This document shows positions 21,182-54,894 of a stretch of 64,000 nt of DNA, piece by piece. Location of the stretch: contig JABICX010000010.1 of assembly GCA_018652045.1 (NCBI GenBank), positions 114-64,113 of the forward strand, given 5' to 3'. A program made the position numbers and the translations under genes. How positions within the stretch are numbered: position 1 is the first letter of the stretch; the number at the start of each line of letters is the position of its first letter. Below the pieces are notes generated by a model, which saw only the letters and a program-made list of their open reading frames with translations, was not told where the DNA came from and ran no database searches. The stretch comes from Candidatus Woesearchaeota archaeon. GTDB taxonomy: Archaea > Nanobdellota > Nanobdellia > UBA10117 > JABICX01.

Positions 21182-21289
21182 ACTGAATTATGCGTCCAAC
21201 CTATTAAATAATTTTCTATCGCCTGCAGTACAATTATTGAAAATCTTTTTACGAGATTTTCAATTCCGCAAAGTGATTATCACTGGGCG

Positions 21290-21421
21290 TTAGGCCAATT
21301 GAGAATGTAATCCTTTGATCAAAAGAAGTGCCAAAACACCGTACTTAAGCCACGAGACAGACACGTCTGAGAATGCTACAAAGCCTACTGCAAACAAATC
21401 AACGATTCCATAAATATGCAT
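21290..21421 (-). CDS. small membrane protein B (43 aa), not in the ORF track
   Basis: Hand translation: MHIYGIVDLFAVGFVAFSDVSVSWLKYGVLALLLIKGLHSQLA. Paralogue of the ORF immediately upstream. Its ATG shares one base with that ORF's TAA (TAATG). Confidence 0.45.
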   Translation of the reverse strand: MHIYGIVDLFAVGFVAFSDVSVSWLKYGVLALLLIKGLHSQLA

Positions 21422-21561
21422 TATGCCGTCACGGAAGGAACTCCTTTGAATACTAAGCCTAAGATAATCACTATCTTTAACCAGTTTAGCCAGCCAAAAT
21501 CTGAAAAGTAGAGTATACCTGCTGCGGCCAAATCTGCTGCACCATATATCTTAACTAGCAT
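21421..21561 (-). CDS. small membrane protein A (46 aa), not in the ORF track
   Basis: Hand translation: MLVKIYGAADLAAAGILYFSDFGWLNWLKIVIILGLVFKGVPSVTA. About 40% identical by eye to protein B (IYG..DL.A.G...FSD....WLK......L..KG..S..A). Confidence 0.45.
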   Translation of the reverse strand: MLVKIYGAADLAAAGILYFSDFGWLNWLKIVIILGLVFKGVPSVTA

Positions 21562-21610
21562 GTTTTTAGCTCATAAAATAAGCTTTTAAGCTTTTATATA
21601 CCGATAAAAT

Positions 21611-25141: not shown

Positions 25142-25735
25142 ATGAACTTTGAAGGGTTTGCTAAAGATCTTACAGTGATAGCTGGAGATCAGGACTTATT
25201 TAGTAACCCTGTTTTAACTGACGAAGCAACAGCTAGATTCCAAGCAGGTAAAGCATATTCTGCAAAATGGAACATAGCCCTACATCAACACTTACTAGGA
25301 CGTGAGCTAAAAAATTACTCTATTGGATTTCAAGTAGAAAATATGGACGATGAAGATGTACTGCTATCGGATAAATTAGGATTTCTGCTTGAAATGCATC
25401 CGTCACCATCAGAACTTGTAACATCGGTAGAACGAAATCGCGTACGTACTCAAGTTGAAGCGCTAGCTAATGAACGTGATGAAGGTAATCTACTTCACAT
25501 AATGCACATGTACATCAAACCATTCCATAGACAAATACCTGTTATCTCCGTAGGTGGAGAGATAAACGTAGCACCTAAACCTGAAAATCTACGCACCTAC
25601 GTAGTTGCATTAGACTATGCTGTCAATGTTATGGGTTGGATCTTTGCAAGTGTAGATAAATTAGACGTTCGACGTAATCGTGATATAAAAAATGCAGTAT
25701 TAGATGTAATAAATGATACTAAAGCGTCTGGATAA
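25142..25735 (+). CDS. hypothetical protein (197 aa)
   Basis: ORF with ATG at 25142 (MNFEGFAKDL). The track start at 25055 is TTG and lies inside the divergent promoter region. No family recognised. Confidence 0.5.
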   Translation: MNFEGFAKDLTVIAGDQDLFSNPVLTDEATARFQAGKAYSAKWNIALHQHLLGRELKNYSIGFQVENMDDEDVLLSDKLGFLLEMHPSPSELVTSVERNRVRTQVEALANERDEGNLLHIMHMYIKPFHRQIPVISVGGEINVAPKPENLRTYVVALDYAVNVMGWIFASVDKLDVRRNRDIKNAVLDVINDTKASG

Positions 25736-26150
25736 GACCTCTTTGTTGTTGTGAGATTATCTGTAAACCTTTAGCTGTAAGGTAATAGTTCTTTGGTTTT
25801 AGTCCAATACTAGATACAAGGTTCATTAGCTCTAAAGAAGTGAGCTTGTCACGGATTGTACGTTCAGTCTTATTTATTGAGAACGCTTGCTTAAGTTTAG
25901 ACGCAGATACTGAAAAATCAGGTGTTGTGGCCTTACTTTGATTCAAAAGAACTAAGAGTTGGAACTTCTCCAAAGGAACTGCTGTATTTGTATTGGAAAT
26001 CCTATCGGAAACTTCCGGTTTCTGATTTCCGTTACGTTCAATCGTGCGTTCCAGGAGTTTGATATAGCGTTCTTTCATCAGAGCTAGCTCTTTTTCTAAC
26101 TTTTCTATACGCTCGTTGGTTGCTGTTTTTTGTTGATCTTCTTGCTCCAT
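25719..26150 (-). CDS. coiled-coil plus C-terminal winged-helix-like DNA-binding protein
   Basis: Likely start MEQEDQQ at 26150. N-terminal heptad-rich region (IEKLEKELALMKERYIKLLERTIE). The C-terminal part (SINKTERTIRDKLTSLELMNLVSSIGLKPKNYYLTAKG) looks like a wHTH. Confidence 0.5.
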   Translation of the reverse strand: MEQEDQQKTATNERIEKLEKELALMKERYIKLLERTIERNGNQKPEVSDRISNTNTAVPLEKFQLLVLLNQSKATTPDFSVSASKLKQAFSINKTERTIRDKLTSLELMNLVSSIGLKPKNYYLTAKGLQIISQQQRGLIQTL

Positions 26151-26360
26151 GAAATATATCTTACCTTTTGGATTTTTATGGGTTTCCCTTTTCCAATACA
26201 CTTCCGATTTGTCAATTATGAGTGAAAACGGCTATATTTGCTGTTTTACCCCCCTATTTCGCATGGAACTGCCCCTTCCGTTAGCACCCGTCTATTTCCG
26301 TTGGAAAGTGTCATTTGAGTCAGGTAATGCGAAAAGTAACGGAAATTGGTTTCCGATAGG
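26001..26360. repeat. array of 8 TTCCG-core repeats, including a composite inverted repeat
   Basis: TTCCG/CGGAA cores lie at 26006-10(-), 26013-17, 26027-31, 26202-06, 26276-80, 26296-300, 26340-44(-) and 26351-55. GTTTCCGATAGG occurs at 26349-26360 and as the reverse complement at 26001-26012. ATTTCCGTTAC occurs at 26025-26035 and as the reverse complement at 26336-26346. Confidence 0.8.
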
Positions 26361-31095: not shown

Positions 31096-32451
31096 CTATG
31101 TGTTTGTAAAATCCAGTATTTGGATGCGCATGTTTCTCAGATTAAGAATTATTACTTTACCTGGATCGGGATGGTGTCCAAGTTTCTCTTGAAACGCCGT
31201 CTTCGCTTGAAAACAACTTGATGCAATACAAAGAACGCCTTTGTATGTAGACACGTCACTCTTATGAATATGCCCTGTATGCAACACATCTGGAACTTGA
31301 TAGATAATTAATGGGTTTGTCTTCATAGGCAAAAGTTCTTGCCCACCATATGTTGGTGAAAGATTTCTTCGTTTAAGAAAGTACTTCTGCACCTCTGTGC
31401 CCTTATTATATCCTCCAGCAAGTCTAAGTGGTTCTATTTCATTGATATAATAATCAAAACTATCTCCATGATACATCAAAACAGTTATTCCTGCGTACTT
31501 TTCAGTATGATGAAGTCGAATAAGTGCTGGATCAGTAACAAGTACTACGTTGTCCATCTCATGGAGATCGCCCGCCAAATATTTCGGTATCTTTGGTTTA
31601 GGTTCTTCAAGACGAATACCTTCATGTGTTCCAGGACAGATAACAACTTTCATGTGTTTTGGTATTTGCTTAATATAATCAATGAGTAGATCGTATTGTT
31701 TATGAATATCTTTTATCTCAAGTTCACGATCTTGTTGCGGGTAGACACCAACACCGTCAACCACATCGCCTGCAAATAAAACGTACCTAACTTTTTTGGC
31801 CATGTCTTTGTGCTTCACACCATCAACCTTACCATTTAACCACGCAATAAACGATTCAAAATCTTCCTTCAAAAACATGTTTGATCCAATGTGCATATCT
31901 GCAAGAAAGGCTACGTAAACATCTTCTTCAGTTGTAGGTATTATTTGTTGAGGTATGTCTGGCCAGATAATCTCATTAACAAAAAATACTCCTTTTGATA
32001 CACCGCCAATAAAACCGACAACTTCGTCTTTTGTCAAGAACTTTGCTTTATCAATTAAATCTTCGTTCTTGCTATGTACAATCGCAGTCATCTTTCCAGA
32101 TAGATCTTCCAAAGTAAGTTTAAGTGTCCCGGTTGGAAGTTTAGCGATATCATAAACCATTGCAATTACAGTTACTTTCTTCTCCTGAATCTGTGATGTA
32201 CGTGATATTGATACTGCGCTCCGCAACTCTGTGCGATTCATAAGAAAGTTACGCATCGTAGAATAATTCTGTCGATTAGCTTCATGAAAATCCTTTACTG
32301 TGATCTTACCAGGTTGATAGTTTGGTGATTGTAAAATCTCAACATTAGTCTCATTATGAAATAGTTGATCAACCTTCTCAAGAGTAGGTAACACTCCTTT
32401 CTCCAACAATTCCTTTATTTTCGATTTCATTACAGGATTAGAACAATTCAC
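31096..32451 (-). CDS. dp1: DNA polymerase II (PolD) small subunit DP1
   Basis: OB-fold followed by a calcineurin-like phosphoesterase domain (LADMHIGS, AGDVVDGVG, HTGHIH). 14-nt overlap with the upstream cdc6. Confidence 0.9.
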   Translation of the reverse strand: MNCSNPVMKSKIKELLEKGVLPTLEKVDQLFHNETNVEILQSPNYQPGKITVKDFHEANRQNYSTMRNFLMNRTELRSAVSISRTSQIQEKKVTVIAMVYDIAKLPTGTLKLTLEDLSGKMTAIVHSKNEDLIDKAKFLTKDEVVGFIGGVSKGVFFVNEIIWPDIPQQIIPTTEEDVYVAFLADMHIGSNMFLKEDFESFIAWLNGKVDGVKHKDMAKKVRYVLFAGDVVDGVGVYPQQDRELEIKDIHKQYDLLIDYIKQIPKHMKVVICPGTHEGIRLEEPKPKIPKYLAGDLHEMDNVVLVTDPALIRLHHTEKYAGITVLMYHGDSFDYYINEIEPLRLAGGYNKGTEVQKYFLKRRNLSPTYGGQELLPMKTNPLIIYQVPDVLHTGHIHKSDVSTYKGVLCIASSCFQAKTAFQEKLGHHPDPGKVIILNLRNMRIQILDFTNT

Positions 32452-33706
32452 CTTGCAAGGTTGTATTTATTTTTTCTAACATATCCGCAGGTATTGTTAT
32501 GTAAATCTCACGTGTTCGGCCATATCTTCCTTTTGAGATTAACCGTGCATTTATCAAACCCAACATATCTAACTCTGAAATAAGATCCGATATTCTTCGT
32601 TGAGTTAATATGTTATTTCCGGTTTGTTTACAGAGTTCCTTATATTGTTCAAAAACCTCTCCAGTTTCTGCTATCTCTCCGCGTTTTTTAGCTGCTAACA
32701 CAAGCAGGATCGAGTACATTACAATCTGACTTTGCTTTGGTTGCGTTTCGATAATCTCTAAAATACGTGATTTCTCTATCTTTTCTTCAGCCATATCTAT
32801 GTGTTGTGCAGCTATTGCTTCGCAGTTGGTTCGTTCTGCAACCTCTCCAGCAACACGTAGAAGATCAAGCGCCCTCCGAGCATCACCATGTTCTCTTGCA
32901 GCATATGCGGCGCACTTTGCTAGAACTCCGTCTTCAATAATTGGTCCTTTAAATGCTAAGATTGATCGTTTAGCTAATATATCTTTCAACTCAAGTGCGT
33001 TATATGGTGGAAATATTATCTCCTCCTCACCAAGACTTGATCGAACTCGTGGGTCAATATCTTCGATAAAACGCACATCATTAGAGATTCCAACGAAAGC
33101 CACTTGTGCTTGATTTAGTTCTGAGTTAATTCGTGTTAATGTATATAATATCTCGTCGCCTGATTTTCTTACAATCTGATCTATCTCGTCCAATACAATG
33201 ATAATTGTTTGCTTTTTTGCATCTAACTTAGTTAGAAAGATGTTGTAAACTTCATCAGTAGGTAGGCCTGTCATGGGCACATGCTCGCCAACCTCTCTTG
33301 CAAGTTGTGCGATTATTCGGTACTCGGTATCTGCCACTTTCTTCAACTTACAGTTAAGATATATTATCCTTAAAGGAATATTTCGCGACTCTGCCAATGC
33401 ATTCATCTTAGTTATTGTGTGTTTCATACAAAGAGTCTTACCTGTTCCAGTTTTACCATATATGAAAAGATTAGAAGGTTTATCTGTCTTAAGTGCTGGA
33501 GCAAGGATAGCTGCGAGTTGCTTCATCTGAGCAGTTCTATGTAATATGATCTCTGGCAGGTACTTAACTTGTAATACAACCTTATCTAAGAACAACGAAT
33601 CTTTCTCTAAGAACTCTTCAAAAAAAGTGTCTAATTCATCCTTCGTTTCTATCTTTACTTCAGTTGGTTGTTTAGCTACAAAATCTGAGATGTTTGTTTC
33701 GTCCAT
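32438..33706 (-). CDS. cdc6: Orc1/Cdc6 replication initiator
   Basis: AAA+ Walker A GKTGTGKT, Walker B IIVLDEID, sensor regions and a C-terminal winged helix (LISKGRYGRTREI). Confidence 0.92.
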   Translation of the reverse strand: MDETNISDFVAKQPTEVKIETKDELDTFFEEFLEKDSLFLDKVVLQVKYLPEIILHRTAQMKQLAAILAPALKTDKPSNLFIYGKTGTGKTLCMKHTITKMNALAESRNIPLRIIYLNCKLKKVADTEYRIIAQLAREVGEHVPMTGLPTDEVYNIFLTKLDAKKQTIIIVLDEIDQIVRKSGDEILYTLTRINSELNQAQVAFVGISNDVRFIEDIDPRVRSSLGEEEIIFPPYNALELKDILAKRSILAFKGPIIEDGVLAKCAAYAAREHGDARRALDLLRVAGEVAERTNCEAIAAQHIDMAEEKIEKSRILEIIETQPKQSQIVMYSILLVLAAKKRGEIAETGEVFEQYKELCKQTGNNILTQRRISDLISELDMLGLINARLISKGRYGRTREIYITIPADMLEKINTTLQGELF

Positions 33707-33710
33707 GAAC

Positions 33711-33723
33711 TTCCATTAGAAAT
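33711..33723 (+). repeat. ORB-like element 1 (TTCCATTAGAAAT)
   Basis: Perfect 13-bp inverted partner at 33807-33819. Resembles the TTCCA-N3-GAAA(T) mini-ORB core. Confidence 0.6.
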
Positions 33724-33806
33724 AACCCTTATATATATTTATATGGCAAAAAATAGAATTACTCTAAAAGAGTTAACCTATAAAGTTTGAACCCTCTCAC
33801 TCCTTG

Positions 33807-33819
33807 ATTTCTAATGGAA
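33807..33819 (-). repeat. ORB-like element 2 (reverse complement of TTCCATTAGAAAT)
   Basis: ATTTCTAATGGAA on the plus strand. Followed by the run ctatataataatatgtttttttatatatatttatatatattt, a DUE candidate. Confidence 0.6.
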
Positions 33820-33986
33820 CTCGCTCTATATAATAATATGTTTTTTTATATATATTTATATATATTTACAATATAGTAAATAACGTTACAACTTATTTCA
33901 CGCTTTACGTTCTTTGATTTTAAAACGAATACTACGACGAGTAACGAAACAACAATTTTGAAAGTAAAAATGTTTTGAAGAAAGAG

Positions 33987-33999
33987 TTCGAGTGGAAAT
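33987..33999 (+). repeat. ORB-like element 3 (TTCGAGTGGAAAT, degenerate)
   Basis: 10 of 13 matches to element 1. GTGGAAAT matches the classical ORB core more closely. Confidence 0.4.
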
Positions 34000-34015
34000 G
34001 ATCGGGTGAGAGTGA

Positions 34016-34354
34016 TTATATGTTTCGGAGTTTGTTTGCAATCTCTTTATTGCCAGAGGGTTGTGCATTTACACCAAGCTGAAATATTACTTGTTTTACT
34101 CCACTTCCCCAACTAAAATCTCCCTTAACATCCCTTATCTCTTTAAGATTAAAGACACCAAGTTCAACACCCTTGTTTAGGTGGTAATATATTGAACGCA
34201 TAGATATTTTTTTGTCATAAACTTTACAATACTTTTTGTACAAATCATATCCATAAGCTTCTTTTAGAAAGAACAAAAGATCTACCATTTCATCACGTAT
34301 CTGGCTTTTCGCTTTTCTTCCAAGTTTTTTAGACATACTATGATTTGTCACCAC
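34016..34354 (-). CDS. small winged-helix DNA-binding protein (PadR-like)
   Basis: 112 aa. LFFLKEAYGYDLYKKY...ISMRSIYYHLNKGVELGVF matches the helix-turn-helix plus wing layout of PadR-type wHTH proteins. Confidence 0.45.
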   Translation of the reverse strand: MVTNHSMSKKLGRKAKSQIRDEMVDLLFFLKEAYGYDLYKKYCKVYDKKISMRSIYYHLNKGVELGVFNLKEIRDVKGDFSWGSGVKQVIFQLGVNAQPSGNKEIANKLRNI

Positions 34355-34486
34355 AGCATTTAAAGTTTCCTTTTTTGCACTATTGAAAAGAATGAATTGT
34401 AGACATGGACATGTGTGTGAAACATATATATAATTGAGTGATTAAACTAAACAATTCTTTAAAACATAGCGCTGAGGTCCTTGATC

Positions 34487-37400
34487 ATGGTTGGAGAAAT
34501 CGTTTGCTCACCCCGCATTAAGAAGTATTTTGATAGACTTGATAAGGAAACACGTACTACACATGCTTTAGCTACCAAAGCAAGAGAGGTTGGGTTTGAT
34601 CCCGAACATAAAGTTGATATCTTACTTGCAGCGTCGGTCGGCAAGCGTGTTGAAGGAATTATAGCAGTTGTTGAACCTCGAATTGTGGACTCAGGTGTTG
34701 CAGAGCGAATATTTACTTTAGAAAAAAAGTATGGACCTGGCGATTGGCGAGTTGGAATGGTTATTGCGTGGGAGGTTGCGAATCACCAGTTCTTTAAGAT
34801 GGATAAGGAAGAACATGCGCTTGCAACCGGAATACGCACAGGTTTAGCATATACAACAAATGGTGTAGTATCCGCACCTGTAGAAGGTTTAGCTGCTATT
34901 AAACTTAGACCTCGACAAGATGGTAAGGGGGAATATATTTCAGTTTATTTTGCAGGTCCAATCCGCGGAGCAGGAGCAACACAACAAGGTGTTGCGTTGA
35001 TTATTGCAGATTATGTTCGAGTAAAGAAAGGCTTAGCAAAATATGATCCAACACCTGACGAAGTTAATCGATATTATACGGAGATGATTGATTATTATGA
35101 GCGAGTCGAACGTAAACAGTACAAACCCACAAAAGAAGAGATGAACTGGATAATACCAAACATGCCTATAGAGATAAATGGTGATCCAACTGCAGAACTC
35201 GAAGTTTCTAATTACAAGAACCTACCACGTGTTGAGACGAATCGTATTCGAGGAGGTTTAGCATTAGTCCTCACAGATGGTGTTGTTAAATATCCAAAAC
35301 TTTGGAAGCAAGTGTCTAAATGGCAAGACGAGTTTGGTATTGACTGGAATTGGATGAAGGAATACTTTAAGATTAAAAAGAAAGTGAGAGCATTAGATAG
35401 CGCTGGAGAGAAAACTGACGAATCAAAGAACAAGAACAAACTTACACCAAACTTTTACTATGTTTCCGAGATCGTTGCAGGTAGACCTGTGTTTGGATAT
35501 CCTTTGGAAACTGGTGGCTTTAGACTTAGATATGGTAGGAGTAGATTGACGGGCGATGGTAGTTGGGCAGTTTCACCCTTATCTGGCAGACTTTTGTTAG
35601 ATTTCCTTGCAACAGGAACACAGCTACGTGTTGAGCGACCAGGCAAGAGTACTGCGCTGACAATGTGTGATTCAATTGAAGGACCGATAGTTAAACTTGA
35701 AAACGGCAACGTTGTTCGTTTAGAGACTGAAGAACAGGTTAAGAAACTTCGAAGTCAGGTGAAGGAGATACTGTTTGTCGGCGACATACTTATCTCACAT
35801 GGTGATTTTAATGAACAAGGAACTACGTTAGTTCCACCTGGATATTGTGAGGAGTGGTGGTTACTGGAGATTGAGAAGCAAGAGAAAGACAAAGGCGTCG
35901 ATTTAAGGCAGGTTGTTGGTGATCTAGCAGACCGTTTGAAGAAAGATATCTTCAAAACCGTACCTTCTTTTGAAGATTCCTTGAAGATTTCCATGAAGCT
36001 TAATGTTCCGTTTCACCCATATTGGACACTCCATTGGAAGGATATATCTGAAGAAGATTACAATAACTTAGTTGGGTGGTGGTTAGCTAAGGAACATTCA
36101 TTAGAAAGTGAGAGTGATAAAAAAGTTAAACGATCTTTAGAGATATTGGGTTGCCCACATGTTGTTGAGAAAGGTAAAGTTGTTTTTGCAGAAGAGTATG
36201 CTAAGGTACTAAACTTTTTTCTTAAGGAGACGTCGACGGGAGAAGATGGTTTAGCCTGCGTAAACAAAACTTCGAATGTTACACAACGAGATAAATCTGG
36301 AACTGCCATCGGCGTAAGAATGGGTCGGCCAGAGAAGTGTAAGGTCCGTCCGATGAAAGGAACACCACATCTATTATTTCCAGTTGGTGATGAAGGTGGA
36401 CGTTTAAGGACATTCCAAGCAGCAGCACAGAATGGCAAGGTCACAGCACAGTTTCCAATCTTTTATTGTGATAAATGTAATCTACAAACCATATACTCTC
36501 GATGTGAGACTTGTAGATCGTTGACTAAATTGTACCGGATCTGTCCAATATGTAAGAAAAAGACAATTGATCTTAAATGTCATAGACCAACTCAGACTTA
36601 CGAAAAAATCGCGCTTGATGTTACAAAATACATTAACTCAGCACGTAAAGTAACAAACATACCACAGATACCTACTCAGATCAAGGGCGTACGTGGAATG
36701 ATGAACAAAGACCACTTTGTAGAATATTTTGGGAAAGGTTTGTTGCGAGCGAAATATAACTTACCTGTTAACAAAGATGGCACAATTAGATTTGATATGA
36801 GTGAGTTGGGAATAACACACTTCAAGCCAAAAGAGATTGGCTTATCTATTGAAAAAGCAAAGGAACTTGGATATGATGTTGATATTAAAGGCGCTCCACT
36901 AACTCATGAAGAGCAAATTCTCGAGATATTTCCACAAGATGTAGTTATGCCAGCATGTCCTGAGTCGCCGAATGAATTATCTGACGTAGTTTTTATGCGT
37001 ATAGCAAACTTTGTTGACGAAGAGCTTGTTAAAATCTATAATCAAAAGCCGTTTTATAATGTTACGAAACGAGCTGATTTGATTGGTCAACTAGTTATTG
37101 GTTTAGCACCACATACTTCAGCAGGAATTATTGGTAGAATTATTGGTTTTTCAGAGACACAAGGTGGTTTTGCACATCCATATTGGCATGATGCTCAACG
37201 ACGAGATTTAGATGGTGAGGAAACTGCTGCGTTCTTATTGATGGATGGATTCCTAAACTTTTCAAGACAGTATCTACCAGACCGGCGAGGTGGTAGAAGT
37301 ATGGACGCGCCACTTGTTCTTTCAACAAAGCTTAATGTAGAAGAGATCGACGACGAGGTTTTTGATGTAGATACTGGCTGGAGATATCCGTTATATTTTT

Positions 37401-37960
37401 ACGAAGCTGCGATGGAGATGAAAGCACCGTGGGACATTAAGATCGATCAGATAAAACATCGGGTAGGTAAACCTGAACAATACGAAGGTATTGGTTATAC
37501 GCACCCCGTTAGTAATATGAACATTGGTATTCGTAACTCTGCATATAAATCATTACCAACCATGCTTGAGAAGATGGGTGGTCAGCTAAAGTTAGCACAA
37601 CAGATTCGTGCAGTAGACCTGGGAAAGGTTGCACAGTTGATTGTAGAGGGACATTTTGTGAGAGATATCAAAGGTAACTTGCGAAAGTTTACAAAACAAA
37701 CGTATCGCTGTACTTCATGTAATACTATCTATCGACGACTACCTTTGAATGGAACGTGTGATCAATGTAAGAAAGGTAACCTCGTTTTTACAATTGCAGA
37801 GGGAACGATAAAGAAGTATCTTGAACCAACTCTTAAGTTGATCGAGTATGAAGGTGTGTCTCCATTTATCAAACAGTCGATAGAACTTCTGAGTCAACGA
37901 GTTGAATCAGTGTTTGGTAGAGATAAGACTAAGCAGTTAGGTTTGGACAGCTTTAATTGA
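34487..37960 (+). CDS. dp2: DNA polymerase II (PolD) large subunit DP2
   Basis: About 1157 aa. Conserved PolD catalytic-core blocks (GRPVFGYP, GGFRLRYGRSR, LAPHTSAGIIGRIIGF, DGEETA, RRGGRSMDAPLVL) and Zn-finger clusters (CDKC..CETC, CPICKKK, CTSC..CDQC). The track start at 34481 is TTG; ATG is at 34487. No intein is apparent. Confidence 0.92.
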   Translation: MVGEIVCSPRIKKYFDRLDKETRTTHALATKAREVGFDPEHKVDILLAASVGKRVEGIIAVVEPRIVDSGVAERIFTLEKKYGPGDWRVGMVIAWEVANHQFFKMDKEEHALATGIRTGLAYTTNGVVSAPVEGLAAIKLRPRQDGKGEYISVYFAGPIRGAGATQQGVALIIADYVRVKKGLAKYDPTPDEVNRYYTEMIDYYERVERKQYKPTKEEMNWIIPNMPIEINGDPTAELEVSNYKNLPRVETNRIRGGLALVLTDGVVKYPKLWKQVSKWQDEFGIDWNWMKEYFKIKKKVRALDSAGEKTDESKNKNKLTPNFYYVSEIVAGRPVFGYPLETGGFRLRYGRSRLTGDGSWAVSPLSGRLLLDFLATGTQLRVERPGKSTALTMCDSIEGPIVKLENGNVVRLETEEQVKKLRSQVKEILFVGDILISHGDFNEQGTTLVPPGYCEEWWLLEIEKQEKDKGVDLRQVVGDLADRLKKDIFKTVPSFEDSLKISMKLNVPFHPYWTLHWKDISEEDYNNLVGWWLAKEHSLESESDKKVKRSLEILGCPHVVEKGKVVFAEEYAKVLNFFLKETSTGEDGLACVNKTSNVTQRDKSGTAIGVRMGRPEKCKVRPMKGTPHLLFPVGDEGGRLRTFQAAAQNGKVTAQFPIFYCDKCNLQTIYSRCETCRSLTKLYRICPICKKKTIDLKCHRPTQTYEKIALDVTKYINSARKVTNIPQIPTQIKGVRGMMNKDHFVEYFGKGLLRAKYNLPVNKDGTIRFDMSELGITHFKPKEIGLSIEKAKELGYDVDIKGAPLTHEEQILEIFPQDVVMPACPESPNELSDVVFMRIANFVDEELVKIYNQKPFYNVTKRADLIGQLVIGLAPHTSAGIIGRIIGFSETQGGFAHPYWHDAQRRDLDGEETAAFLLMDGFLNFSRQYLPDRRGGRSMDAPLVLSTKLNVEEIDDEVFDVDTGWRYPLYFYEAAMEMKAPWDIKIDQIKHRVGKPEQYEGIGYTHPVSNMNIGIRNSAYKSLPTMLEKMGGQLKLAQQIRAVDLGKVAQLIVEGHFVRDIKGNLRKFTKQTYRCTSCNTIYRRLPLNGTCDQCKKGNLVFTIAEGTIKKYLEPTLKLIEYEGVSPFIKQSIELLSQRVESVFGRDKTKQLGLDSFN

Positions 37961-53722: not shown

Positions 53723-54892
53723 ATGGTAGATAGTACGCATAGATTAAACTTCGTTTTAGATATTGATGGAGTGCTAACTACAGGTAAGTTTCTGTATGAC
53801 GAGAACGGTAAGGCATACAAAGAGTTCGGTCCGCATGATGCGGACGGTTTAAAATTAGTTAAAGATAAAGTTAACATAACTTTTGTTACTGCAGATAAGC
53901 GAGGGTTTCCAATATCGTCAAAACGTATAACTGACATGGGATATCCAATTAAGTTATCTACCGAGAAAGATCGATATAATCAATTTAAGAACGACTTCGG
54001 TTTTAGTAATACTATTTTTATGGGTGACGGACTTCATGACGCACCAGTTTTGAAAGATTGCATGTTTGGCGTTGCACCCGCTAATGCTCGAAAAGAGGCA
54101 AAGCAGGCAGCAGATTTTGTAACGGAGTCAAAGTCTGCAGAGGGCGCAGTACTTGACGCTTGTATTGAGATCAATCGGAGATTTTTGCAAGGAGATAAAC
54201 TAAAATATAAAGTTTGTATCTTAGCTGCAGGAAAAGGTAGCCGAATGTCAGACTTTTGTGAGGTTTACAACAAAGCAATAATACCTGTTCAGGGTAAACC
54301 TGCAATATGTCATATTATTGAAAAGTTTCCAGAAGATGTTGAGATTGTAATTGCAGTAGGTTACAAGAAAGAAAGTATAAAGCACTACTTAAATTACGCA
54401 TATCCAAAACGTAAGATAACGTATGTGGAAGACTTTGAACTTAAAGGTCCGGGATATTCTTTGCTAAAATGTAAAGACCATCTTCAGAGTCCTTTCATTT
54501 TCTTTGCAGCGGACACACTTGTTAGAGAACCAATACCTTTGCCAGACAAAAACTGGTTTGGACTTACAGAAGTAAAAAATACTGAACGGTTCTGTTCAGC
54601 ATCCGTTACAGGAGATAAGATCTCACGCGTTGATGATAAGGTAAAGACTGACAATAAGTACGCATTTATTGGTTTAGCAGGCGTTTATGATTGGGAGTTT
54701 TTTTGGAACAGACTTACATCAAACGACCAAATCATTGCTGGCGAGATTCAGGTTTCAAATGGCTTTAGGGCTTTAATGGGAAAAGACATGTTTGCGGAGT
54801 ACTTTACTTGGTTTGATGTGGGCGTTCCAGAGGCATATGCATATGCGTTAGAGAACTTTCCTTTTGGTGAATCTTACAGGGGCGAAGATTAG
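53723..54892 (+). CDS. bifunctional KdsC-type HAD phosphatase / sugar-phosphate nucleotidyltransferase
   Basis: Residues 1-155: FVLDIDGVLTTG...DGLKL...FMGDGLHDAPVL...GAVLDAC (YrbI/KdsC subfamily). Residues about 161-389: KVCILAAGKGSRM (IspD/LicC-type loop) and a GT-A-like nucleotidyltransferase fold. Confidence 0.75.
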   Translation: MVDSTHRLNFVLDIDGVLTTGKFLYDENGKAYKEFGPHDADGLKLVKDKVNITFVTADKRGFPISSKRITDMGYPIKLSTEKDRYNQFKNDFGFSNTIFMGDGLHDAPVLKDCMFGVAPANARKEAKQAADFVTESKSAEGAVLDACIEINRRFLQGDKLKYKVCILAAGKGSRMSDFCEVYNKAIIPVQGKPAICHIIEKFPEDVEIVIAVGYKKESIKHYLNYAYPKRKITYVEDFELKGPGYSLLKCKDHLQSPFIFFAADTLVREPIPLPDKNWFGLTEVKNTERFCSASVTGDKISRVDDKVKTDNKYAFIGLAGVYDWEFFWNRLTSNDQIIAGEIQVSNGFRALMGKDMFAEYFTWFDVGVPEAYAYALENFPFGESYRGED

Positions 54893-54894
54893 AT

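Follow-up and report, generated by a model that had tools for sequence, protein, structure and literature searches.

Where does chromosomal replication start in Candidatus Woesearchaeota archaeon (assembly GCA_018652045.1), and does the non-coding gap between its cdc6-dp1 and dp2 genes serve as the origin? The window, meaning the whole 64,000-nt stretch of DNA that was analysed, spans positions 114 to 64113 of contig JABICX010000010.1 (C15:114-64113), and the gap lies at positions 33707-34015 of this window, directly after the cdc6 ATG (33704-33706). The assembly comprises 685 kb in 25 contigs and is 88.5% complete; ∼12% of the genome is absent from it. An earlier reading of the letters of this DNA (the original prediction) had proposed that the gap holds a replication origin (oriC), on the basis of short repeats resembling the origin recognition boxes (ORBs) bound by Orc1/Cdc6. 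Our analysis indicates that the gap is very probably the chromosomal replication origin, of the oriC1 type and with the canonical Orc1-1/ORB arrangement, of an archaeon of the Pacearchaeales/Woesearchaeales (Nanoarchaeia, DPANN). The ORB(-)/duplex unwinding element (DUE)/ORB(+) anatomy, its conservation among relatives, the genome-wide specificity of the ORBs, the minimum of duplex stability and the skew switch were observed directly and, together with the adjacent gene for an Orc1-1 orthologue, they bear out the proposed origin. As an origin it is of an ordinary kind; only the conserved palindrome at its centre stands out.

Origin recognition boxes and the AT-rich core

A 32-nt ORB matrix (consensus TTCCAtnnGAAATnAAGGGGTanGgG) was derived from 27 ORBs that lie upstream of cdc6 in a set of 29 related genomes, with the genome under study left out. 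When the assembly was scored with this relatives-only matrix, two boxes in the gap, one proximal and one distal to cdc6 (Table 1), ranked first and second among 1.37 million positions. The third match (26241-26272, minus strand) scored 19.5 bits, and the background maximum was near 14.6 bits. A repeat finder returned an inverted pair of 34 nt at 33794-33827 and 33979-34012 (74% complementarity), both arms of which read GAGTTC-N6-GAAAT-N3-5-G(G/A)GTGAGAG. A GAGTTC-N6-GAAAT dyad followed by a G-rich tail is the anatomy of a full ORB: the published box consists of a TCCA...GAAA dyad and a GGGGT G-string (PMC4164010), and the matrix consensus agrees with it. The two ORBs are mutually inverted, and the G-string of the proximal box is directed away from the DUE.

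The repeats on which the original prediction was built were then re-read in this light. The 13-mer TTCCATTAGAAAT at 33711-33723 and its perfect reverse complement at 33807-33819 are both present, and the window has no further exact copy. When the gap was simulated with a first-order Markov model, 0.65% of the runs contained a perfect inverted repeat of ≥13 bp (P about 0.0065). The likeness to ORBs was also confirmed, with two full ORBs and one mini-ORB that carry a TTCCA-N3-GAAA dyad. The inverted pair that would function, however, is 33792-33823 with 33983-34014, rather than the pair of perfect 13-mers. The sequence TTCGAGTGGAAAT was correctly placed at 33987-33999, but it is not the degenerate third copy it was taken for, since it belongs to one of the two full ORBs. 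Matches to the 13-mer with 3 mismatches number 53 in the window, which is not significant against 43.7 expected, and TTCGAGTGGAAAT in its 32-nt context is the second-best ORB of the whole assembly.

Conservation was examined at 80 related loci from metagenome-assembled genomes (MAGs) named Woesearchaeota or Pacearchaeota, with a cut-off of ≥15 bits. As the original prediction required of a genuine origin, the boxes are strongly conserved, at the level of both order and class: ORB matches were found upstream of cdc6 in 76 of the 80 loci. Almost all of the 142 matches fell in the 900 nt upstream of cdc6; downstream, no ORB match reached the cut-off in >280 kb of sequence. The commonest layout was (-) distal and (+) proximal in the orientation of cdc6, and the 31 loci with exactly two boxes always showed it, so that the dyads are turned toward the AT-rich core and the G-strings away from it. 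The order ORB(-)/DUE/ORB(+) is the common form of CDC6-type origins (10.64898/2026.08.15.744077), and the layout found here fits it. A relative with a 919-kb genome (G010) has 4 matches of ≥14 bits in total, all within 4 kb of cdc6; this entry (919,475 bp, listed as 1 contig) consists of 46 pieces joined by 100-N spacers and is not a closed genome.

Between the two ORBs, the core at 33828-33978 is 79.5% AT, and its 150-nt AT content (80%) ranks second in the assembly. The 60-mer of lowest duplex stability anywhere in the assembly (33824-33883) abuts the cdc6-proximal ORB, with a nearest-neighbour dG of -54.3 kcal/mol compared with a C15 mean of -76.9 (sd 4.6). The core also contains a 16-bp palindrome, TTTACAATATAGTAAA, which is the sole perfect match to TTTACNATATNGTAAA in the assembly. 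Among 420 kb of related loci, 43 of the 47 matches to the family pattern TTTWCWATATWGWAAA (≤1 mismatch) are located no more than 600 nt upstream of cdc6; 31 loci have a match between the two ORBs. In Sulfolobus, an active origin requires the ucm motif in the DUE; its binding protein, UBP, contacts MCM (PMC12141716). By analogy, an accessory factor probably binds the core palindrome.

The mini-ORB is a dyad with no G-string; a spacing of 4 nt separates it from the cdc6 ATG and one of 5 nt from an AT-rich box (33729-33744). The layout CAT-N3-5-TTCCAnnnGAAA-N5-8-TATA (AT-box) recurs in at least 10 relatives of two families (f1 and f5), and AT-rich boxes occupy the same position upstream of cdc6 in relatives. 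These spacings suggest that the AT-rich box is the probable TATA region of a leaderless cdc6 mRNA and that the mini-ORB is probably an autoregulatory operator. The 16-bp direct repeat TTATATATATTTATAT does occur at 33729-33744 and 33846-33861, as had been described, but its first copy is a poor candidate for unwinding: at 23-38 nt upstream of the cdc6 ATG, it occupies the position expected for a TATA box.

At 72.5% AT, the gap is the most AT-rich of the window among gaps of ≥150 nt free of open reading frames (ORFs; cut-off 60 aa), as had been claimed. It is not the longest, since 53938-54894 (957 nt) and 21182-21610 (429 nt) exceed it. ORFs that overlap the gap are of 20-56 aa only and look spurious. 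A non-coding RNA in the gap was considered and rejected, because no Rfam family matches the gap even at E ≤1. The two longer stretches, which are the longest of the window to lack an ORF of ≥60 aa, gave no Rfam match and contain no tRNA.

Strand-corrected skew and competing explanations

Raw cumulative GC skew is confounded by an excess of G on the coding strand (+0.09 to +0.18), and it was therefore replaced by per-gene regression and by skew at third codon positions (GC3) or 4-fold degenerate sites. On C15, the raw curve had a minimum between 26 and 34 kb and then rose steadily to the contig end. The best single breakpoint of the per-gene regression was at the gap or one small gene away from it. 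This breakpoint reduced the residual variance by 29% with total GC skew (0/300 permutations) and by 40% with third positions (0/200 permutations), and its polarity was that of bacteria, with a G-rich leading strand. The skew test proposed with the original prediction thus came out in favour of the gap, at the level of a contig from a fragmented assembly. A single terminus-like (+ to -) switch of similar strength was found on another contig, C4, at 109.4-109.7 kb (0/300 permutations), and the region around ∼109.5 kb of C4 is likely the replication terminus region.

The same test was applied to long contigs from seven relatives. For G010, a whole-genome skew curve is meaningless because 46 contigs are joined, and its 67-kb cdc6 piece (626580-693590) was used instead. 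A breakpoint within one gene of the ORB-bearing gap was obtained in five of eight contigs, namely C15, G002 (C8), G009 (C1), G014 (C3) and the G010 piece. The coincidence of its position in five genomes supports use of the gap as an origin.

Several observations weigh against this reading. In families f5 and f6 (G009, G014 and G010) the polarity is opposite, with a C-rich leading strand compared with the G-rich one of the genus studied here, and it is also reversed at 4-fold degenerate sites in the two genomes checked (G009 and G010). Breaks in G005 and G018 are weaker and lie 13 and 6.5 kb from the gap, and no skew switch was detected in G021 by the long-contig breakpoint test. On C15 itself, the left replichore arm is only 34 kb long and its skew is weak (near 0 at 4-fold sites). 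Finally, Thermococcus kodakarensis keeps a canonical oriC yet replicates without it (PMC5663688). Given the displaced or absent switches and the differences in polarity, skew is a noisy witness in this clade. As a separate observation, the reversed sign of the skew goes with lower-GC genomes.

Additional origins, located at a second full Orc1/Cdc6 paralogue or in the missing part of the genome, would mean that the gap is not the sole or main origin. We regard this as unlikely. The assembly does contain two further Cdc6-like genes, one of them full length with a Cdc6_C domain, weak skew breaks of origin polarity occur on contigs C2 and C23 (7/300 and 5/300 permutations, respectively), and the assembly is incomplete. 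Neither paralogue, however, has an AT-rich gap or an ORB upstream; the upstream gaps measure about 85 nt and 37 nt, and a second origin at these genes was rejected. Genomes of the class of about 0.7-0.8 Mb carry a single-copy Orc1-1 orthologue, and only one strong origin-like and one strong terminus-like switch were found. The two paralogues may be Orc1-2-type regulators.

A further explanation, to which we assign a low probability, is that the ORB cluster is mainly an Orc1 autoregulatory or promoter region, or a dormant origin, with bulk replication starting elsewhere or driven by recombination, as in T. kodakarensis and origin-deleted Haloferax. Such a precedent exists (PMC5663688), a mini-ORB does sit within the cdc6 promoter, and a second conserved ORB pair at the promoter of another gene, which has no AT-rich core, indicates that Orc1 sites can serve roles other than that of an origin. 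The skew switch, moreover, is absent or displaced in three of the eight contigs and inconsistent in polarity. Set against this are the strand-corrected breakpoint at the gap in 5 independent genomes and the inverted ORBs that flank the least stable duplex of the assembly, an arrangement needless for a simple operator. No other ORB cluster or AT-rich gap was found beside a Cdc6 gene in the assembly.

The view that the repeats arose by chance in a divergent promoter region rich in AT can be dismissed: short repeats arise readily in AT-rich DNA, many weak inverted repeats are present in the gap and the 13-mer family (≤3 mismatches) is unenriched, but the perfect 13-bp inverted repeat is improbable, the extended boxes rank first and second genome-wide by an independent matrix and their positional conservation across the 80 loci is extreme, so that genome-wide ranking and locus conservation refute it.

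Flanking genes and the distal box pair

The assignments of cdc6, dp1 and dp2 made in the original prediction were all upheld by Pfam (Table 1). The best solved relatives of the encoded Cdc6 are Cdc6-1 of S. solfataricus (2QBY_A, E 8e-105) and ORC1 of A. pernix (2V1U_A, E 1e-100), proteins that were crystallised on ORB DNA (2QBY, 2V1U), and by this match the protein is classified as an Orc1-1 orthologue. The MAGs that carry its relatives are named Woesearchaeota, Pacearchaeota, Nanoarchaeia or Nanobdellota, which places the organism among the DPANN archaea.

Table 1. Features of the origin region, the distal box pair and the Cdc6-like paralogues. Positions are those of the window unless a contig is named.
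Feature	Position	Strand	Evidence or remarks
Coiled-coil and TubR-like winged helix-turn-helix (wHTH) gene	25722..26150	-	ORB-like pair upstream; fold comparison
Tandem ORB-like pair	26241..26310	-	19.5 bits (third in assembly) and 11.6 bits
DNA polymerase D (PolD) small subunit DP1	31096..32451	-	Pfam DNA_pol_E_B and Metallophos; 14-nt overlap with cdc6 stop, same operon
orc1/cdc6 initiator, 422 aa	32438..33706	-	Pfam: AAA+ domain, Cdc6_lid, Cdc6_C winged helix
Mini-ORB (dyad, no G-string)	33711..33723	+	Between cdc6 TATA box and ATG
Probable cdc6 TATA-box region	33729..33744	-	First TTATATATATTTATAT copy; 23-38 nt upstream of ATG
Full ORB, cdc6-proximal	33792..33823	-	Dyad 33807-33819 and G-string GGAGTGAGAGGG (33792-33803); 28.9 bits
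Candidate DUE	33824..33883	.	Least stable 60-mer of assembly
Core palindrome, 16 bp	33865..33880	.	TTTACAATATAGTAAA; family pattern TTTWCWATATWGWAAA
Full ORB, cdc6-distal	33983..34014	+	Dyad 33987-33999 and G-string CGGGTGAGAG (34003-34012); 25.1 bits
PadR-like winged-helix gene, 106 aa from ATG at 34336	34016..34336	-	AlphaFold2 (AF2) pLDDT 89
PolD large subunit DP2	34481..37960	+	Pfam PolC_DP2 N-terminal, central and catalytic; transcribed away from origin
Cdc6-like paralogue, 468 aa, full length with Cdc6_C	C2:46471-47877	-	
Cdc6-like paralogue, 370 aa, no detectable winged helix	C15:115131-116243	+	

Of 80 related loci, 77 have dp1 immediately after cdc6. The gene dp2 is downstream of dp1 in 49 of 62 informative loci, and upstream and divergent, as here, in the other 13/62. 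A single inversion of the segment small wHTH gene-oriC-cdc6-dp1 converts the common order into the present one, and the dp1/dp2 split is therefore clade-specific. The layout with the two polymerase subunits on opposite sides of the origin had been read correctly but, judged from these gene orders, it is a derived rearrangement of the clade rather than a functional design.

The small wHTH gene that had been noted beside the gap was likewise confirmed, as a 112-aa ORF with a PadR-like winged-helix fold. Searches of the 106-aa protein against Pfam, NCBIfam and PDB sequences gave no match, and fold comparison alone was informative: the closest folds to the AF2 model are PadR regulators, and the protein has an N-terminal RGRP-type basic tail. 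The gene is single-copy and adjoins oriC-cdc6 in 37 of 41 relatives of the order. It is present, also in single copy, in 116 of 151 genomes of the class, and in other orders it lies 20-300 kb from cdc6. The palindrome was found at 24 loci without a PadR-like gene within 2.5 kb. A role for the PadR-like protein as the specific partner of the palindrome is thus unsupported by co-occurrence, given these 24 loci and the distance of the gene in other orders; it is still conceivable, because most genomes have just one copy of the gene.

The tandem ORB-like pair, which includes the third-best match of the assembly, is located 7.5 kb from the origin and upstream of a gene for a coiled-coil protein. 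The wHTH domain of this protein is closest to TubR, and also resembles AspA and pNOB8 centromere-binding proteins and MarR regulators. Orthologues were found in 14 of 40 related genomes, and where both genes share a contig the orthologue lies 5-8 kb from cdc6, on either side. At 11 of 11 loci of relatives, one or two ORBs (15.5-25 bits) are present upstream of the TubR-like orthologue, on the sense strand. A second origin at 26.2 kb was rejected, because these ORBs stand in tandem, not inverted, and the AT content of the gap there is 57%. The pair may instead be an Orc1-controlled promoter or an origin-proximal centromere-like site. Matrix and repeat scans revealed no Pyrococcus-like ORB cluster inside dp1. 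In relatives, arrays of TGGAAA half-sites were also seen in the region of the TubR-like gene.

Proposed initiation, known origins and significance

From the arrangement of the sites we infer that proteins bind them, where the duplex unwinds, that cdc6 is autoregulated and that firing is bidirectional, as follows. The Orc1-1 orthologue encoded by the adjacent gene would bind the two full ORBs as monomers, with its winged helix contacting the TTCCAnnnGAAAT dyad and its AAA+ initiator-specific motif contacting the GGGGT-type G-string. The inverted boxes would present their dyads toward the roughly 160-bp AT-rich core, where MCM would be recruited and the duplex would open in the least stable stretch, abutting the cdc6-proximal ORB; forks would then leave in both directions. 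Binding of Orc1 to the mini-ORB of the apparently leaderless cdc6-dp1 operon would block the pre-initiation complex and repress synthesis of Orc1 itself. The core palindrome would be occupied by an accessory factor, in a manner analogous to ucm/UBP of Sulfolobus.

A lineage-specific layer of control over the Orc1/ORB core of woesearchaeal and pacearchaeal origins is conceivable, although we consider it doubtful. In it, TTTWCWATATWGWAAA would dock a dedicated dimeric accessory protein, which could be the single-copy PadR-like wHTH protein as an analogue of ucm/UBP, and Orc1 would act as a transcription factor at the tandem ORBs of the TubR-like gene, 5-8 kb from the origin. Initiation would in this way be tied to chromosome segregation or to control of the cell cycle.

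The gap resembles oriC1 of Sulfolobus/Saccharolobus and Aeropyrum pernix in that the origin adjoins the orc1-1 orthologue, in the order of a TCCA...GAAA dyad and then a GGGGT G-string (PMC4164010), and in the two inverted ORBs that flank an AT-rich DUE (ORB3-DUE-ORB2). As in Sulfolobus, where initiation maps to such a place (PMC12141716), one ORB borders directly on the least stable DNA, and an extra conserved motif is found inside the DUE. This last analogy is one of position only, since the motif here is the 16-bp AT-rich palindrome TTTWCWATATWGWAAA and ucm is TTATACAAAC (as quoted in 10.64898/2026.08.15.744077). Sulfolobus has three origins, whereas a single origin is likely here. A promoter-embedded mini-ORB, a mesophilic DPANN lineage and a genome of about 0.77 Mb also distinguish the present case from Sulfolobus and A. 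pernix.

The oriC of Pyrococcus abyssi and P. furiosus is similar in its two long inverted ORBs (34 bp), its 13-bp mini-ORBs and its AT-rich stretches upstream of cdc6-dp1(-dp2), and the core TTCC...GAA motifs match. The ancestral cdc6-dp1-dp2 order of Pyrococcus is the one kept in the 49/62 related loci, whereas here an inversion has left dp2 on the far side of the origin. P. furiosus ORB1 shares the dyad, but its G-run is about 10 nt further from it (PMC1904270). Pyrococcus also has a second ORB cluster, bound by Cdc6, a few kb from oriC (PMC1904270); it lies inside dp1, in contrast to the pair found here upstream of a TubR-like wHTH gene.

The gap has the features by which CDC6-type oriCs are recognised in Ori-Finder 2, Ori-Finder-Arch and DoriC: it is intergenic, lies beside the initiator gene and contains ORBs and a DUE in the order ORB(-)/DUE/ORB(+). 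The predictions of Ori-Finder-Arch cover Nanobdellota, according to its authors, and in a 2026 Nanobdellota genome paper ORC1/Cdc6 was used only for rotating genomes. Beyond bulk computational annotation, we found no published account of ORB sequence, palindrome or skew behaviour for Woesearchaeales/Pacearchaeales.

With these results, (i) the origin, and hence the replichore layout, is very probably fixed for a fragmented DPANN genome; and (ii) a lineage-specific ORB matrix is available that locates oriC in the great majority of the Woesearchaeota/Pacearchaeota MAG loci surveyed, and that can be used for genome rotation, for skew and growth-rate (peak-to-trough) estimates and for assembly checks. 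The biology is as expected, since Orc1-1 and ORBs are conserved across archaea. The leads that emerge are the core palindrome, the Orc1 boxes at the promoter of the TubR-like gene and the opposite skew polarity in sister families.

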